Source: a virus
Taxonomy: Duplodnaviria > Heunggongvirae > Uroviricota > Caudoviricetes
Virus record (IMG/VR): IMGVR_UViG_2778261058_000002
Coordinates: 1-5,365 of that record
Direction: 5' to 3' (one strand)
Length of the DNA: 5,365 bases
Part shown: positions 1 to 5,365 of the stretch, piece after piece
Position numbering within the stretch: position 1 is the stretch's first letter
Layout: each line of letters opens with the position of its first letter
Notes under the pieces: generated by a model
Seen by the model: only the letters and a program-made list of their open reading frames with translations
The model's database searches: none
Told to the model about the DNA's origin: nothing
Program-made: the position numbers and the translations under genes

Positions 1-332
1 ACGTCTGCGCCATGTTTTGACGCATTCATGGGGGCTGCGGTGGCATAAATGGTGATCCGGCGGGGAGGACCGCCACTTGCCACCTGGCAGACGGTAAAGC
101 TGCCTTTATTTACCAGTTTTCCGTTGAATCCCAGTCCCAGCGTTAATACTGCGCCTTTTGGTGGCAGCGCCATCGTCTCACTGAACAGGGTTATCATCAG
201 TTCATCGGAGCGCTTTGTGGCAGCACCATTATCGGTATAACGCAGTTCAGCCAGCCCCCGCTTTATGGCCTTCGTGATATCCTCACCCTCTGCTGTCAGG
301 CTGAAATCCGGCTGATACTCATTCAGTCCCAT
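1..332 (-). CDS. D: Tail protein D (gpD / late control D family, baseplate hub-like), partial: N-terminal ~110 aa only, gene continues past the window start
   Basis: Minus-strand frame is open from ATG at 332..330 to the window edge (checked codon by codon, no stop). In-frame TGA at 362..360 makes 332 the first possible ATG. AAGGAG Shine-Dalgarno-like motif about 11 nt upstream. Translation begins MGLNEYQPDFSLTAEGEDITKAIKRGLAELRYTDNGAATKRSDELMITLFSETMALPPKGAVLTLGLGFNGKLVNKGSFTV..., which fits the gpD-family N-terminal pattern as I recall it. Absent from the ORF track because it is truncated by the window edge. Start overlaps the stop of X by 10 nt. Confidence 0.75.
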   Translation of the reverse strand, partial: MGLNEYQPDFSLTAEGEDITKAIKRGLAELRYTDNGAATKRSDELMITLFSETMALPPKGAVLTLGLGFNGKLVNKGSFTVCQVASGGPPRRITIYATAAPMNASKHGAD

Positions 333-541
333 AGCTGAAACGTCTCCTTTTCCTCCGGTTCATACACCCAGTCCGGCAACACGATTTCCACTCCCGCCGG
401 ATAGACCGGACCAATATCAGCCAGTCCGGGATTGGCTTCCAGTACCGCCGCCAGTGACTGGTTAAGTCCGGCGCTGCCATAGTGTCTCTGACAGATATCA
501 TCCAGCATATCGCCGTCAGTGGTCCGCCAGTTTTTCGCCAT
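323..541 (-). CDS. X: Tail protein X (gpX-like, small LysM-like tail protein), 72 aa
   Basis: ORF 541..323 with ATG start. Translation MAKNWRTTDGDMLDDICQRHYG...LEANPGLADIGPVYPAGVEIVLPDW closely parallels the P2 gpX pattern (GDTLDAICVRYYG...LAANPGLAELG...LPD) from memory. Size matches gpX (about 67-72 aa). Lies between U and D as in phiCTX/R-pyocin-type clusters. Confidence 0.85.
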   Translation of the reverse strand: MAKNWRTTDGDMLDDICQRHYGSAGLNQSLAAVLEANPGLADIGPVYPAGVEIVLPDWVYEPEEKETFQLWD

Positions 542-1004
542 AGTATTTCAGCTCCAGTGTGAACGTTTTGTTCTTCGGCGCACCGCCGGGAAGAAATGAC
601 GTGGTGTTATCTGAATAGGCAGTTGCCACGAAATACCCCATCACATCACCTGTGCTCGAGACCAGAAGATGCGGGGCCGGATTGTCATCCACCATCTGAA
701 CCAGTGTATCAAGAGCGTCCATTCCCACACCGTCACGAAATCCTGCATGCGCCATACCTTCAAGGGTTATTGTTCTGGCCCCCTTGCCGGTATACTGCAG
801 CAGGTCGTTTTTTCCGATAAGCTGTTGTTCATCCCATCGCCATTCCATCGTGCGCTTCATGGCGTTATAAGCAGCAGTATCAATACTGAATTCAAACTCA
901 CCAAACGACAGCATGACGCGGGAGGCGACATCCGTTAATGATCCCACCGCGTCCCATGCTTCACGCTCAAGCCGGTTTACGCCCCAGCCCAGCAAATCCA
1001 CCAT
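516..1004 (-). CDS. U: Tail protein U (gpU-like), about 162 aa
   Basis: ORF in track is 516..1010, but the codon at 1010..1008 is GTG; the first ATG is at 1004..1002, preceded by a GGGGGTG Shine-Dalgarno-like run (1014..1008), so 1004 is the preferred start. Size and position (directly after tape measure) match P2 gpU. Its 3' end overlaps the X start by 26 nt. Confidence 0.8.
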   Translation of the reverse strand: MVDLLGWGVNRLEREAWDAVGSLTDVASRVMLSFGEFEFSIDTAAYNAMKRTMEWRWDEQQLIGKNDLLQYTGKGARTITLEGMAHAGFRDGVGMDALDTLVQMVDDNPAPHLLVSSTGDVMGYFVATAYSDNTTSFLPGGAPKNKTFTLELKYYGEKLADH

Positions 1005-1006
1005 AT

Positions 1007-2659
1007 TCACCCCCAGAATGCATCACCATCAGTCATGCGGGAACGCTGACCAAAATTAATATCTCCCAGATTTTTCGTTACCCTGTCTGCCAGTTGTCCG
1101 GCATCCTCGCCGGGCTTCTGAGTGATGTTAAATTCCGCCCGTATCTGATATGTGGGTTTTACTTCCACCTGGCTGACACTGCCGGGTGTATACTGAAGAG
1201 CTGAGAGGGGATCCGAATTACCCTGCCCCGGATCTGCTGCATGAAGTCCATCAATGTAGGTGCGGGATTTCTCTTTTATCGCCTTAAAATCAGGTTCTTC
1301 TTTCGGCCCCAGCAGAGGGTCGAGAAATGCATCAAACTTTTTATCGTCATGATTCCAGGGGAGATAACCGCGGGTGTCTTTATAAGCCTGTACAACCTGT
1401 TTCGTCAGATCCGGATTTTGCCTGAGCAGTTCATCAAACCATTCTCCCTGGCCGTTTTTCTGCGCCACCGCTCTCGCCAGCTCCGGCGACCCCATTTTTG
1501 CCAGATATTCCAGTACCTCTCGCCGGTCCTGACGCGGATCATCTGCCAGCCCCCACTCAATGGCTTTCTGCGTTATTCCGGCCAGAACTTTTCCAAATTT
1601 CCACATCCAGGCAGCCATGTCGATCAGCGCCGGCAGGGCATCATCACGAATAAATGCCCGGATTTTTTCCAGCCCACCATTCTTAAACCAGGCCGCAAGG
1701 TCATCCGTCACCTGTTGAATATGTGGGGCAAGTTCATTACCCAGCTGTCCGCTGATTTCATCAATGGAAGAACTCAGAACATTACGGAGATTTGACAGTG
1801 CCACATGTCCCTGAACTGCGCCATCAGCCCCTGCCTTTGTCACCAGGTTATAGCGTTTCTGCTCACTGATAAGCTCCCGATAAGTTTTCCCTGACAGACG
1901 CATCCAGGTCAGAATTTTATTGGCCTCACCACCGAACAACGCATCTGCCATTCCGGCAGCCACCTGTTCATTCTCTACCTGCAGTAAGCGATCAAATAAA
2001 AATTCGACCTGCTCCTGGTTACTTTTCCCTGCCATCACCCCGGCTTTCAGTCCCAGTTTGCCAAAGACCTCCTGAATGGCCCCTTTATCCGTGGCACCAT
2101 TATCATCGTCAAAAACCTTGTTCCGGTACTCCTCAAACAGATCACCGATGTTTTCACCGTTCAGCCCCATCAGTCGGGCCAGAGAATCCCATGACGCATA
2201 GGTTTCATAATCCACCCCATAACTGCGGGCTATCCCTGCCCGCTCTGCCGTCTCCGTATTCCGGTTAAGCACAGCGGCAGTGCCCGCTGCCAGCGTCAAC
2301 CCGGAACCAACCGAAAGCCCAAAACCGGTTTTAAGGACCGTCCCCGCCCGCCCTTTCCAGCGTTCCAGGCGTTCCGCACGAGCCAGTTTACGGTTAAATT
2401 TGTCCTGCTCTCCGGTGGCATCATGAATTTTTTTACCCAGCTTTTCATACTGCTTTCGCAGATCGGTAATATCCTGTCCTGCCAGTACAGCAGCCTGAAT
2501 TTTTCGTTTCAGTACGTCCTGCTGGCGTGTCAGACGAGCCACTTCCTGTGTTGCCCCTGATAATCCGTGCTTCAACCCATCAACCGATTTTTTCCACGAC
2601 GGATCTATCGTGCCTCCGATCCGGATATTCGCTTTAAGGTTATCGCCCACCGTTGCCAT
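1007..2659 (-). CDS. T: Tail tape measure protein (gpT-like), 550 aa
   Basis: Longest ORF, ATG at 2659..2657 preceded by GAGAGGAAG Shine-Dalgarno, TGA stop at 1009..1007. Located directly after the E/E' frameshift chaperone with its start inside the E' frame, the conserved arrangement for tape measure genes. Composition is charged/Ala/Gly-rich with predicted helical stretches, typical of tape measures. Confidence 0.85.
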   Translation of the reverse strand: MATVGDNLKANIRIGGTIDPSWKKSVDGLKHGLSGATQEVARLTRQQDVLKRKIQAAVLAGQDITDLRKQYEKLGKKIHDATGEQDKFNRKLARAERLERWKGRAGTVLKTGFGLSVGSGLTLAAGTAAVLNRNTETAERAGIARSYGVDYETYASWDSLARLMGLNGENIGDLFEEYRNKVFDDDNGATDKGAIQEVFGKLGLKAGVMAGKSNQEQVEFLFDRLLQVENEQVAAGMADALFGGEANKILTWMRLSGKTYRELISEQKRYNLVTKAGADGAVQGHVALSNLRNVLSSSIDEISGQLGNELAPHIQQVTDDLAAWFKNGGLEKIRAFIRDDALPALIDMAAWMWKFGKVLAGITQKAIEWGLADDPRQDRREVLEYLAKMGSPELARAVAQKNGQGEWFDELLRQNPDLTKQVVQAYKDTRGYLPWNHDDKKFDAFLDPLLGPKEEPDFKAIKEKSRTYIDGLHAADPGQGNSDPLSALQYTPGSVSQVEVKPTYQIRAEFNITQKPGEDAGQLADRVTKNLGDINFGQRSRMTDGDAFWG

Positions 2660-3079
2660 AACATCGCTTCCTCTCTTCCGACTCCGCCAGCATCATTGCC
2701 ACAAAATCCGTATACGGCAGCGCCATCACATCTCCGGGAGACCACCCGAACCAGGCACCGGCACGCCGTATCGCTGTCAGGATGCTTTCTTCTTCCGCCG
2801 GACCGGCGGCAGCAAAAAAACATTAAACTGACGCTCCAGGGCCAGGTAATCACACGCTTCCATGTTCATCATGTCTGCCGCGTCCATCCCACACAGACCG
2901 GCAATCATATCCAGATCAGCCTCTGCTTCCGGTTTGTTACTCCGGCGATGCAACAGACGATCGCGGACAGTGGGCGCACGCATAGTGACGTGCGTGATCG
3001 TCTGTCCTGATGCGGTGACATACGGCACGGATAACACAATTTCCACGCTGCTGGCAGGAACACTGTTTTTTTCCGACAT
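2640..3079 (-). CDS. Tail assembly chaperone E+E' fusion made by programmed -1 ribosomal frameshift (E frame 3079..2814, E' frame 2813..2640); about 146 aa
   Basis: Slippery heptamer T_TTT_TTG at 2819..2813 (minus strand) sits in the E frame as GTT TTT TTG. The -1 frame is open from the slip site to a TAA at 2642..2640 (translated by hand: AAAGPAEEESILTAIRRAGAWFGWSPGDVMALPYTDFVAMMLAESEERKRCYGNGGR) and overlaps the tape measure start at 2659, as for P2 E/E'. Confidence 0.7.
2777..3079 (-). CDS. E: Tail assembly chaperone E (gpE-like), about 100 aa, unshifted product
   Basis: ORF ends at TGA 2779..2777 with C-terminus ...ERQFNVFLLPPVRRKKKAS. Track start ATG 3085 sits directly against the AGGAG (3090..3086) with no spacer; the ATG at 3079..3077 has a 6-nt spacer and is the preferred start (MSEKNSVPASS...). 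Position between tube and tape measure and the internal slippery site identify it. Confidence 0.8.
   Translation of the reverse strand: MSEKNSVPASSVEIVLSVPYVTASGQTITHVTMRAPTVRDRLLHRRSNKPEAEADLDMIAGLCGMDAADMMNMEACDYLALERQFNVFLLPPVRRKKKAS
2813..2819 (-). promoter_or_regulatory. Programmed -1 ribosomal frameshift (recoding) site, slippery heptamer T_TTT_TTG
   Basis: Plus strand 2813..2820 reads caaaaaaa, i.e. TTTTTTTG on the minus strand, phased in the E frame as G-TT|TTT|TTG. This is the canonical X_XXY_YYZ slip motif reported for tail chaperone pairs (lambda G/GT, P2 E/E'). Confidence 0.75.
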
Positions 3080-3091
3080 AAGCATCTCCTT

Positions 3092-3119
3092 TAAAAAGAA
3101 AAGGCGGCCTGAGCCGCCT
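3092..3119 (-). terminator. Rho-independent terminator-like hairpin between tube and E (minus-strand transcript)
   Basis: Perfect 7-bp GC-rich inverted repeat AGGCGGC (3102..3108) / GCCGCCT (3113..3119) with 4-nt loop, followed on the minus strand by TTTTCTTTTTAAA (3101..3090). Lies in the 59-nt gap between the tube stop (3139) and the E Shine-Dalgarno. Confidence 0.7.
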
Positions 3120-3138
3120 GAATGACAGGATCCCCGGA

Positions 3139-3657
3139 TTAAACCCGGATGATTTTTTTCAGATCCGCCAGAACATTAACGCCGTTAATACGGCGCACAA
3201 ATTCCTCCGGAATAATGCAGATGGTTTCCACACCGTCAACAGCCTGACGGTAATAACTCAGTGACATTTCCACCGTCACCGAAGCCTCTGCCTGTGACGT
3301 TGCGGGACGCGCATCCGGCGTGATACTGGTGATCATCCCCTGCAGGGTTTCCACCTGTCCGCTGGTCGCATTCCCCACCTGGTAAGCCTGGCGGACAACA
3401 ATCTCCGGCGAATAAAGCCCGGCCTGTAATCCCAGCAGCGTAAGCATGGCAACATCATAACCATAAATCTTAAACGAACAGGTCAGCGCTTCCATGCCGT
3501 CATCCACTGCCACCGGTGCATCCATTGCGCCAGTTTTGATATCCACTGTCGTGATATTAATGGCTGGCGGCGTATATTCGTGCGCCCCCTGAAGACGGAT
3601 CCCACCAGGAAGAAATAACGCCCATGCGCGCAACAGTTTTTTTTCACCCGTAATCAT
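3139..3657 (-). CDS. FII: Tail tube protein (FII-like), 172 aa
   Basis: ORF 3657..3139, ATG start overlapping the sheath TGA (ATGA overlap). Same length as P2 FII (172 aa) and directly downstream of the sheath. C-terminal region ...ICIIPEEFVRRINGVNVLADLKKI resembles the tube-family C-terminus. Confidence 0.85.
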   Translation of the reverse strand: MITGEKKLLRAWALFLPGGIRLQGAHEYTPPAINITTVDIKTGAMDAPVAVDDGMEALTCSFKIYGYDVAMLTLLGLQAGLYSPEIVVRQAYQVGNATSGQVETLQGMITSITPDARPATSQAEASVTVEMSLSYYRQAVDGVETICIIPEEFVRRINGVNVLADLKKIIRV

Positions 3658-5129
3658 ACCGTCAGCTCCTCCAGCGCCAGTTTATTGTTAATCATCGCCC
3701 GCAGTGTCAGGCGCTCCAGTGGTGACTTCGGCCCAAAGTCATAATCGATATACAACTGCCCGGCGGCCAGGGTTTCTGCTGTGTTCAGTTCATCATTCAG
3801 CCAGGCACTGCCACCGTGGATCGCGCCCAGATTTTTAAGCTGACGCATATAGGCATTAATACTGCCAAGAATGTCGTCCGCCACATCACGATCCAGCGGA
3901 CGGTCAACATAAGGCAGCATGGCCTCCTGAATACTGTCCTCTATCACATCTGCAGTACGGCGTACCGGCTCAAAACGCCACTGACTGTGGGATGAACACA
4001 GACGGTTGCCCCAGTGTTTAAAACCGTCATGCCGAATAATGGTGGAGATGTTTTCCATGTTCAGCAGGTTTGCTGTGCAGTTCTGCTCCCCGAGAATAAA
4101 TGTGTCCACCTGCTCCAGACCGGTGATATTCATCACGTCCTGGTTTGATTTGGACCACCACCATCCCTTTTCGTAATCTATGCGGGCACGCAGCCCGGCA
4201 GCACGAGCCGAATACGGACGAAATACCGTTTGCCCGCTGTCATCCGTTACTGACACGCGCGGGCGCAGCAGCTCCACGCGCCCGCCAAAGGATGCGCGCC
4301 TCTGAACCACATCCTGCGGCGTTGCCATTGAGGGAGAGTCGATATAGGCCACGGCCCGCAGCTTCGCGGCATACGTTTCCAGCGCCTTTGCCACACCATC
4401 ATCCTCACTGTAACCCGTGGCAATGAGGATGCGCGGTTGATAGCCTGTCACGCCCTTACTTTCTGTCAGCGCCTCCATGGCCTGAATCACCGCCGCACGC
4501 TGTTCGGCCTCTTTCGCCTTTGTTTTGCTTTCCGCACGCACCACAATCACCAGCGCACCGGTCTGGTCAAAAATATCACGCAGGGCCGGATATAATGTCC
4601 CGGCTGAGCCCAGTTTCCCGGCCTGAGTAATGGCCCCTGCCACCACCACCGGTGTATTGACCGGGAACGCCTCATCCTCCCCGCCGGATAACGTCAGGCT
4701 GAACGGCGACACCACATTATTTTCAGCGCTTCCTGCATTCAGGGTACTGACAGCCGCCGTCACAGGCGAATCCCCCAGCGCATTCACCACTTCAGTCACA
4801 CGGTCCGCCGTGGCGTTAATCTGGCTGTGTTCGTCCGTCCCCAGCGTTATCGTCAGGGTTGTGCCTTTCAGCGATGCCGCTGTCTGCGCGTTTTGTTCTG
4901 TGGCAGCCACAGCAACAACCGAAATCTTATTACCGGCCCGACCTTCCTGTTTCGCCGTGAAATCCAGCGCCGTTCCCAGCAGCCAGGAGCCGGCTGTGCC
5001 GGAAGCGCACACACCACCAGAGGCGTCCGGCGCAGTCCCCACCAGGCCAATCACTGCCGTGGAGATGGTCTGCACGGCAACCGTGCCTGTCGTCAGTTCA
5101 ATGGTTTCAACACCATGTAATCCGGACAT
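3654..5129 (-). CDS. FI: Contractile tail sheath protein (FI-like), 491 aa, with an extra ~110-aa N-proximal insertion
   Basis: ORF 5129..3654, ATG preceded by GGGAG Shine-Dalgarno. Several blocks match the P2 FI sheath from memory: [32 protein letters not shown] vs [50 protein letters not shown] vs [34 protein letters not shown] vs [43 protein letters not shown] vs [27 protein letters not shown]. Confidence 0.9.
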   Translation of the reverse strand: [491 protein letters not shown]

Positions 5130-5141
5130 ACATTTCTCCCA

Positions 5142-5164
5142 TAAAAAAACCGCCCTCAGGCGGT
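5142..5164 (-). terminator. Rho-independent terminator-like hairpin between tail fiber assembly gene and sheath (minus-strand transcript)
   Basis: 6-bp GC stem ACCGCC (5149..5154) / GGCGGT (5159..5164) with 4-nt loop, followed on the minus strand by seven T (plus-strand A run 5143..5149). Only about 13 nt separate the T tract from the sheath ATG. Confidence 0.65.
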
Positions 5165-5183
5165 CAGATGATTAACTTCTTTT

Positions 5184-5365
5184 TCAGGTATTTTGTGGCT
5201 GCTCAGGCCAGCTAATATTGTTGTAAGTGGTCTTATCCGTAATAGCGCTGAAATCCATCGCCTGCAGCGATTTCGCGTAAATGCGGTACGCTTTCAGCTT
5301 CTCCCTGTCTTCGTCACTGATTAATCCCAGCAGCAGGTCTTTTTCCCATTCGCTGGTCATGATGC
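5184..5365 (-). CDS. tfa: Tail fiber assembly protein (Tfa / P2 gpG-like), partial: C-terminal ~60 aa only
   Basis: Minus-strand frame open from the window edge to TGA at 5186..5184. Translation ...MTSEWEKDLLLGLISDEDREKLKAYRIYAKSLQAMDFSAITDKTTYNNISWPEQPQNT* has the C-terminal W-P-E-x-P motif and preceding helical segment typical of enterobacterial tail fiber assembly proteins. Position just upstream of the sheath matches P2 order (H-G-FI). Confidence 0.7.
   Translation of the reverse strand, partial: IMTSEWEKDLLLGLISDEDREKLKAYRIYAKSLQAMDFSAITDKTTYNNISWPEQPQNT

Follow-up and report, generated by a model that had tools for sequence, protein, structure and literature searches.

The closest described relatives of the protein considered here are the tail sheath of phage P2 (gpFI) and that of the R2-pyocin (PA0622; PDB 3J9Q), proteins of 386–396 amino acids (aa) in which a conserved N-terminal arm leads straight into the core. 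In a comparative study (Evseev 2022; PMC9230969), one-domain sheaths of ~320–410 aa, including those of the P2 type (the P2 sheath itself being given as 396 aa), were designated 'type 1', while 'type 2' sheaths were defined as those in which the main domain is joined by a single further compact domain, remote from the tube, with overall lengths of 426–713 aa. Extra sheath domains have also been described as surface-exposed 'Russian doll' insertions whose conservation is lower than that of the core and without which sheaths can still form (PMC6088184). The present analysis concerns a tail sheath gene at positions 3654..5129 (minus strand; 491 aa plus stop codon) of a 5,365-nucleotide (nt) stretch of Caudoviricetes DNA, positions 1 to 5,365 of IMG/VR virus record IMGVR_UViG_2778261058_000002 (hereafter the window). 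Like gpFI and PA0622, the encoded protein combines a homologous core with a conserved N-terminal arm, but differs in possessing ~105 extra residues between the two. The reading favoured here, with a rough probability of 0.6, is that this insert constitutes an outward-facing accessory domain placed between the N-terminal arm and a P2/R-pyocin-type core, and is an old module belonging to a family of outer-layer domains.

The relevant open reading frame (ORF) exceeded the cut-offs of both Phage_sheath_1 (53.1 bits, cut-off 31.4; residues 215–375, nt 4005–4487, minus strand) and Phage_sheath_1C (61.1 bits, cut-off 26.9; residues 380–478, nt 3696–3992, minus strand) in Pfam, and matched both the R2-pyocin sheath (3j9q, E-value 5e-53) and the phrog_23 tail sheath family (E 4e-110), from which it can be judged to be a genuine tail sheath. 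Its Pfam domains, the alignment of its arm and C-terminal part, and its position immediately upstream of an FII-type tube gene in a P2-like module all place it with the P2 FI/R-pyocin-type sheaths, but at 491 aa with an extra domain it falls outside the one-domain 'type 1' architecture of ~320–410 aa.

Direct comparison with the FI sheath of Peduovirus, confirmed to be 396 aa in length as the original prediction had it, resolved the protein into two aligned blocks. BLASTP matched query residues 5–40 to FI 6–41 with 44% identity, and query residues 146–483 to FI 33–384 with 38% identity (E 2e-66), while no alignment with FI was returned for the intervening query residues (~41–145). Equivalent comparison with the R2-pyocin sheath (386 aa) aligned its residues 34–381 with query residues 147–487 only. 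Among 541 records in a phage collection that matched the sheath, 26 covered at least 80% of the query, and most of the others began at residue 146–155. On this basis the gene can be divided into a conserved N-terminal arm and linker (residues 1–38; 5016..5129), the inserted domain (residues 39–150; 4680..5015), of which the domain proper spans ~41–145 and is terminated by a conserved L-x-G-G motif at 147–150, and a conserved core (residues 151–491; 3657..4679) corresponding to the whole body of the P2 FI and R2-pyocin sheaths, all on the minus strand. The slightly wider interval 4680–5018 (minus strand) translates to GGVCASG...TLSGG, sheath residues 38–150. The insert is ~105–113 aa long, and its edges are uncertain by ~8 residues because FI residues 33–41 align to both flanks. 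It is rich in Ala (16%), Thr (13%), Gly (11%), Val (10%) and Ser (10%). The claims that arm and core align with FI, that residues ~39–150 have no FI counterpart, and that the segment has an Ala/Thr/Ser/Val/Gly-rich composition were all upheld by these data, and sequence comparison thereby confirmed that a ~105-aa segment absent from the P2 FI and R-pyocin sheaths is a real insertion relative to such minimal proteins.

The probability that this segment is an artefact, due to a misassigned start codon, fused genes or an error in sequencing, is negligible. The 38 residues preceding the insert align with the N-terminus of FI, 10 of 10 Escherichia coli alleles retain the 1476-nt ORF intact, with neither insertions nor deletions, and at least 80% of the window is present in 74 complete genomes (of 5426 genomes). 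Full-length homologues of 484–506 aa also occur in many genera and in five isolated phages, and an annotation artefact was ruled out as the source of the insert on these grounds.

Structure prediction with AlphaFold2 was undertaken both for the full-length protein (69-sequence family alignment) and for the insert alone (segment 27–156, 36-sequence alignment). In the full-length model residues 31–140 were predicted with a local distance difference score (pLDDT) of ~90, and the insert modelled in isolation gave a mean pLDDT of 88.9 and a predicted template modelling score (pTM) of 0.80, so the proposal that it forms a separate domain was borne out at the level of prediction. The modelled elements run strand-strand-helix-strand-strand-strand-helix-strand-strand, with helices at residues 64–68 and 108–117, and the models support a separate, autonomously folding mixed alpha/beta domain. 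The further suggestion of a beta-rich, possibly Ig-like fold did not survive: the two helices are at odds with it, no Pfam profile of the Ig, Big or FN3 families matched the insert even at E ≤ 10, and the domain does not belong with the Ig-like (Big/FN3/I-set) decoration domains. The latter (Fraser et al. 2006, cited in PMC9230969) resemble the insert-type domain in being accessory modules shuffled among phage structural proteins, and in their occupation of similar positions, as extra domains of sheaths and at the C-termini of tail-tube proteins, but are beta-sandwiches rather than mixed alpha/beta structures.

The closest structural matches to the insert-only model, with moderate scores, were all sheaths with extra domains: phiCD508 gp55 (9GB1), DSY3957 (3HXL), the sheath from H. 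borinquense (9EZM) and T4 gp18. No detectable sequence similarity links the insert to these or any other solved chains, and the proteins also differ in their cores, that of the present sheath being P2-like rather than of the Firmicute or T4 type. With a main domain, an extra compact domain (pTM 0.80) and a length of 491 aa, the protein belongs to type 2 while having a core of the P2 kind, a known multi-domain architecture as far as the models can be relied upon; by analogy, the extra domain would lie on the outside. Searches by other routes yielded little further. The insert profile gave no match to PDB sequences at E ≤ 10, and a profile of the full-length sheath reached only sheath cores in the same set; matches at E ≤ 1e-3 in the BFVD viral structure library were all uncharacterised phage proteins; PHROGs profiles did not cover the insert (best E 0.18); and a word-index homology search with the insert alone recovered E. 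coli sheath fragments only.

Insert-bearing full-length homologues were distributed across the Enterobacterales (Salmonella, Klebsiella, Enterobacter, Citrobacter, Serratia, Pantoea, Erwinia and others), while a tblastn search with residues 27–156 found the insert in five isolated phages only. The sheaths of these phages (Hafnia phage yong2, Citrobacter phage Chris1, Vibrio phage Valp1, Aliivibrio phage H905 and Acidithiobacillus phage AcaML1), which are 487–498 aa in length and annotated simply as 'tail sheath protein', possess this domain at an identical position, with core identities of 37–70% and insert identities of 25–39% by whole-protein alignment or 35–47% by tblastn; none of the five has a solved structure, and the papers retrieved contained no description of the insert domain. 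In a core-only tree (a small neighbour-joining tree constructed without bootstrap and used qualitatively for interleaving only), insert-bearing sheaths interleaved with insert-less ones (P2 FI, BR319a, MAR and WO). Identities to the query fell together for core and insert, from 0.86/0.49 down to 0.34/0.18, implying long co-inheritance of the two, and the domain was present at the equivalent position even in sheaths with cores only 26–40% identical to the query. Because of this interleaving, and because insert identity tracks core identity, comparison of these sequences points to an old domain that is patchily distributed and has been lost or gained several times, and the supposition that the insert was a lineage-specific novelty had to be abandoned.

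Sheaths that lack the studied insert can nonetheless be enlarged elsewhere. The P2-like sheaths of Escherichia phage HeidiAbel_Bas97 (L003:5983-7410, 475 aa) and Xanthomonas phage FoX2 (L004:2875-4314, 479 aa) have a different insertion of ~90–100 aa between the equivalents of query residues 243 and 244, which is Gly-rich and contains two G-Y-T-x-A-P-x-V/I-T repeats. Judged from these alignments, extra segments of at least two unrelated kinds have entered P2-type cores, at two different sites. The sheath of Burkholderia phage Mica (L019:427-1905, 492 aa), which grouped with those of Bas97 and FoX2 in the core tree, was matched in two pieces.

Within the insert-bearing sheaths, the three parts of the protein have evolved at very different rates. 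Among Enterobacterales homologues the median identity was 43% for the insert, 67% for the core and 82% for the N-terminal arm, the last being the most conserved part and that with the lowest column entropy; by analogy with the pyocin and diffocin literature (PMC6088184), this arm would be the inter-subunit 'handshake' strand. Comparison of 10 E. coli alleles, all of 1476 nt, gave a non-synonymous divergence (dN) of 0.105, a synonymous divergence (dS) of 0.49 and a dN/dS ratio of 0.21 for the insert, and corresponding values of 0.015, 0.36 and 0.04 for the core, so that non-synonymous change has been approximately sevenfold faster in the insert. One allele (L005) exhibited 99.7% identity in the insert and 95.7% in the core, while another (L012) exhibited 76.5% and 93.7% respectively, and such differing divergence of insert and core indicates mosaic exchange, or recombination, within the sheath gene. 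The insert is on these measures under purifying selection, much less constrained than the core, and exchanged as a cassette, a fast and mosaic pattern of evolution that fits an exposed accessory domain. Positive selection was also considered, but the region-wide dN/dS of 0.21 provided no support for it at the level of the gene region.

Several features of the sheath gene in E. coli prophages were recorded in the course of these comparisons. The window, which derives from an E. coli prophage, shared 96.5–98.1% identity with its ten best matches among the prophages of complete E. coli genomes, and the sheath was more diverged than its neighbour genes, as in A36, with 98.1% identity over the window and 95.1% over the sheath. 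One E. coli sheath allele (P0004, 462 aa) has a 29-aa deletion in the core (TESKGV...GVAKAL) between two short 'AL' repeats and is probably a defective prophage copy; another protein (P0008, 498 aa) is a chimera that follows the sheath to residue 357 and continues with unrelated sequence, and probably derives from a disrupted prophage or a misassembly.

That the domain was recently acquired, as a foreign element entering the P2-type FI sheath of this particular prophage lineage, is distinctly unlikely. Such an origin had been hinted at on the grounds that the DNA of the insert appeared locally GC-richer, but the adjacent core (residues 151–300) has a higher GC content (0.607) than the insert (0.598), the value for the whole core being 0.563. 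GC at third codon positions (GC3) is 0.634 in the insert, 0.619 in the whole core and 0.653 in the adjacent core, and hence equivalent to that in the rest of the gene; the insert's excess sits at codon position 2, derives from Ala, Thr, Gly and Ser codons, and is largely accounted for by amino-acid composition (0.578 predicted, 0.598 observed), so GC content and codon bias were ruled out as signs of acquisition. The proposal draws support from the argument that the ancestral sheath had one domain, to which extra domains were added later (Evseev 2022; PMC9230969), from the evident mobility of the domain family over long time-scales, its members being found in unrelated protein architectures, and from recombination of the insert as a unit in E. 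coli, of which L012 is an example. The occurrence of the same domain at the same site in sheaths of low core identity, with insert and core diverging in step, is nevertheless difficult to reconcile with a recent event. A weak 15-nt imperfect direct repeat at 4641–4655 and 5012–5026 roughly brackets the insert, and might be the trace of an ancient junction left by a deletion or insertion; however, it agrees at just 12 of 15 positions, belongs to a two-copy family of a class flagged as often due to chance, and is probably itself a chance occurrence.

A much wider distribution became apparent when an insert profile (A2) built from this sheath and its homologues was run exhaustively with HMMER against 1.84 billion cluster representatives, returning 505 proteins at E ≤ 1e-3. 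Among the matches listed, about one third were sheaths or sheath fragments with a single copy at residues ~27–160, and about two thirds carried 2–12 tandem copies of the insert-type domain. A few sheaths of 590–640 aa hold two copies: P0148 (642 aa) is a sheath by its phrog_205 tail sheath match, while P0270 (599 aa) and P0249 (590 aa) are presumed to be sheaths from the similarly N-proximal position of their two tandem copies, and the arrangement in all three indicates that the module is capable of duplication in situ. Many of the multi-copy proteins are flagellar axial proteins, identified from Pfam, NCBIfam and source names as FlgL, Flagellin_N/C, FlgE, FlgK and FliD, the FlgL assignments exceeding the curated NCBIfam cut-off. 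These enlarged FlgL/flagellin, FlgE, FlgK and FliD proteins carry 2–12 homologous copies in their outer hypervariable regions, and where flagellin-family proteins were inspected (P0147, for instance) the copies were flanked by the helical regions of the two termini; in this they are like the sheath, in which the domain is likewise situated between terminal segments that build the polymer. Through PHROGs, further matches were connected with additional sheath families, with 'virion structural protein' and with a 'major tail protein' family, in the last case at its C-terminus.

The non-sheath proteins match the profile over positions ~12–125, and members of the family share the motifs GxxGNxI, LTITLxTDxxG (LxITLxTDxxG), TAxEVxxAVN and a terminal LxGG. 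Real proteins scored 73–156 bits, compared with no more than 10 bits in 100 shuffles of each, and alignment of the sheath-insert profile with the flagellar repeats by hhalign gave a probability of 99.3% (E 2e-20), a partly circular result in that the repeats had been chosen with the same profile. Reciprocal tblastn with a repeat protein recovered the sheath inserts of Valp1, H905 and AcaML1. Because of the shuffles, the aligned motifs, the hhalign result and the reciprocal searches, the relationship is not a composition artefact, and homology of the sheath insert with the flagellar and phage repeats is well supported at the sequence level. The family would accordingly be taken to include sheaths with one or two copies, 'major tail protein' members, repeat proteins encoded near tube genes, and flagellar axial proteins. 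No significant Pfam or NCBIfam model matched the repeats, and seven multi-copy proteins had no Pfam family at all. Extra sheath domains are already known as a kind, while the wider family to which this one belongs is apparently uncatalogued, to judge from Pfam and NCBIfam. A limited literature search found no description of a link between the sheath insert and the flagellar domain, and the comparison drawn by Evseev (2022; PMC9230969) between flagellin and sheaths is a general architectural analogy only.

One group of repeat proteins, typified by P0136 (L022:8001-10142) and including P0128, P0129, P0132, P0133 and others, comprises proteins of 440–1050 aa with 3–7 insert-type copies. It accounts for 19 of the top matches, is characterised by conserved N- and C-termini and gave no Pfam match, and one such gene lies 2.5 kb from a Phage_tube_2 gene on a metagenome contig. 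These may be capsid, sheath-like or fibre proteins, identities between which genomic context and PHROGs did not discriminate.

From the structural likeness of the insert to the distal domains of other sheaths, the positions of its relatives in other polymers, and its evolutionary behaviour, an accessory role on the outside of the tail can be proposed. In such a scheme the N-terminal arm and residues 151–491 would be responsible for polymerisation and contraction, and the insert, by analogy with the multi-domain sheaths solved so far, would stand out from the exterior of the tail, be carried along passively during contraction and be unnecessary for sheath assembly. The outer layer so formed might strengthen the extended sheath through added lateral contacts, or engage in surface interactions of a weak and variable kind, and the domain would be an old and patchily retained representative of a wider family deployed on the outsides of helical assemblies. 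A non-essential, outward-facing decoration domain is the most likely identity of the insert by comparison with these other systems, and it is from the same comparison that we infer that the insert faces outward, can be dispensed with and serves in stabilisation or adhesion.

A number of observations weigh against this assignment. The outward orientation depends on analogy, and the full-length model is weak in residues 322–393 and hence unfit for judging how the domain packs. A dN/dS below 1 in the insert denotes constraint, and is compatible with a more specific function. Furthermore, although 7 of 36 homologous inserts matched Pfam PF17481 (Phage_sheath_domII) below threshold (best E 6.5e-4), making a distant relation to that domain possible, the window's own insert gave no match to it. 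The weakly modelled core region (window 3951–4166) has a pLDDT of ~30, despite lying inside Phage_sheath_1 and being among the most conserved parts of the protein, possibly as a result of a shallow alignment of closely related sequences, or of ordering that occurs only in the assembled sheath.

A related proposal is that the insert is primarily an adhesion module, in which weak binding to host-surface glycans would aid adsorption as has been suggested for phage Ig-like domains. Adhesion has been proposed for additional sheath domains (Evseev 2022; PMC9230969), the insert-type domain occupies positions taken elsewhere by Ig-like domains (as an extra sheath domain and at the C-terminus of 'major tail protein'), and the insert is highly variable and mosaic between alleles. 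The fold, however, is not Ig-like, only one of 36 members weakly matches a carbohydrate-binding family (CBM_6, E 0.037), and the domain is also present in the junction and hook proteins FlgL, FlgK and FlgE, where glycan adhesion meets no obvious need; adhesion as the principal function is therefore considered unlikely. Very unlikely is a docking function restricted to the terminal sheath rings, where the domain would contact baseplate or neck proteins. There is a precedent in phiCD508, the distal domain III of which is flexible and becomes ordered only at its contact with the triplex wing domain of the baseplate (PMC11948020), but nothing unusual is apparent in the baseplate and neck genes of this P2-like tail module, and a conserved protein–protein interface would not vary as much as the insert does among prophages that are otherwise nearly identical.

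For the sheath itself the outcome of regarding the insert as an outward-facing accessory domain is modest, namely that an extra outer domain is present in some P2-like tail modules and absent from others. P2 FI and the present sheath nonetheless constitute a natural pair with which to assess the role and dispensability of sheath accessory domains, and the insert is a candidate permissive site for the display of cargo on engineered tailocins or phage tails. More widely, a domain with no significant Pfam or NCBIfam match would recur on the outside of two unrelated bacterial helical machines, and cataloguing its family would improve the annotation of several hundred protein clusters and provide a handle on the evolution of filament outer layers. 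It is tempting, though speculative, to go further and suggest that the insert defines an undescribed and widely shuffled 'filament-surface' family, through which tails and flagella have exchanged an outer-layer module with some common property; if so, the shared module would confer on both a feature such as an outer stabilising layer.

The window as a whole is a P2-like tail module with all genes on the minus strand, transcribed in the order tail fibre assembly, sheath, FII tube, gpE chaperone, tape measure, gpU and X, the same neighbourhood as in P2 (tail fibre assembly, sheath, FII tube, E/E', T, U and X). Upstream of the sheath, again as in P2, lies the C-terminal part of a tail fibre assembly protein (5184..5360; Pfam Caudo_TAP profile positions 83–131 of 131). 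Downstream, the start of the FII-type tail tube gene (3139..3657; Pfam Phage_tube, E 4e-24) overlaps the sheath stop codon, and is followed by a gpE-type tail assembly chaperone gene (2777..3085; Pfam Phage_TAC_7), a gene for a 550-aa protein (1007..2659) that gave no Pfam match and was identified as the tape measure protein from gene order and the RefSeq annotation of near-identical prophages, a gpU-type tail protein gene (516..1010; Pfam Phage_P2_GpU, E 3e-27) and a tail protein X gene (323..541; Pfam Phage_tail_X, E 7e-19). Close to the 3' end of the chaperone gene a TTTTTTG slippery heptamer is present at ~2813–2819 (minus strand), beyond which the -1 frame is open to approximately the start of the tape measure gene; this is the site expected from the sequence for the programmed frameshift that would give an E+E' product.

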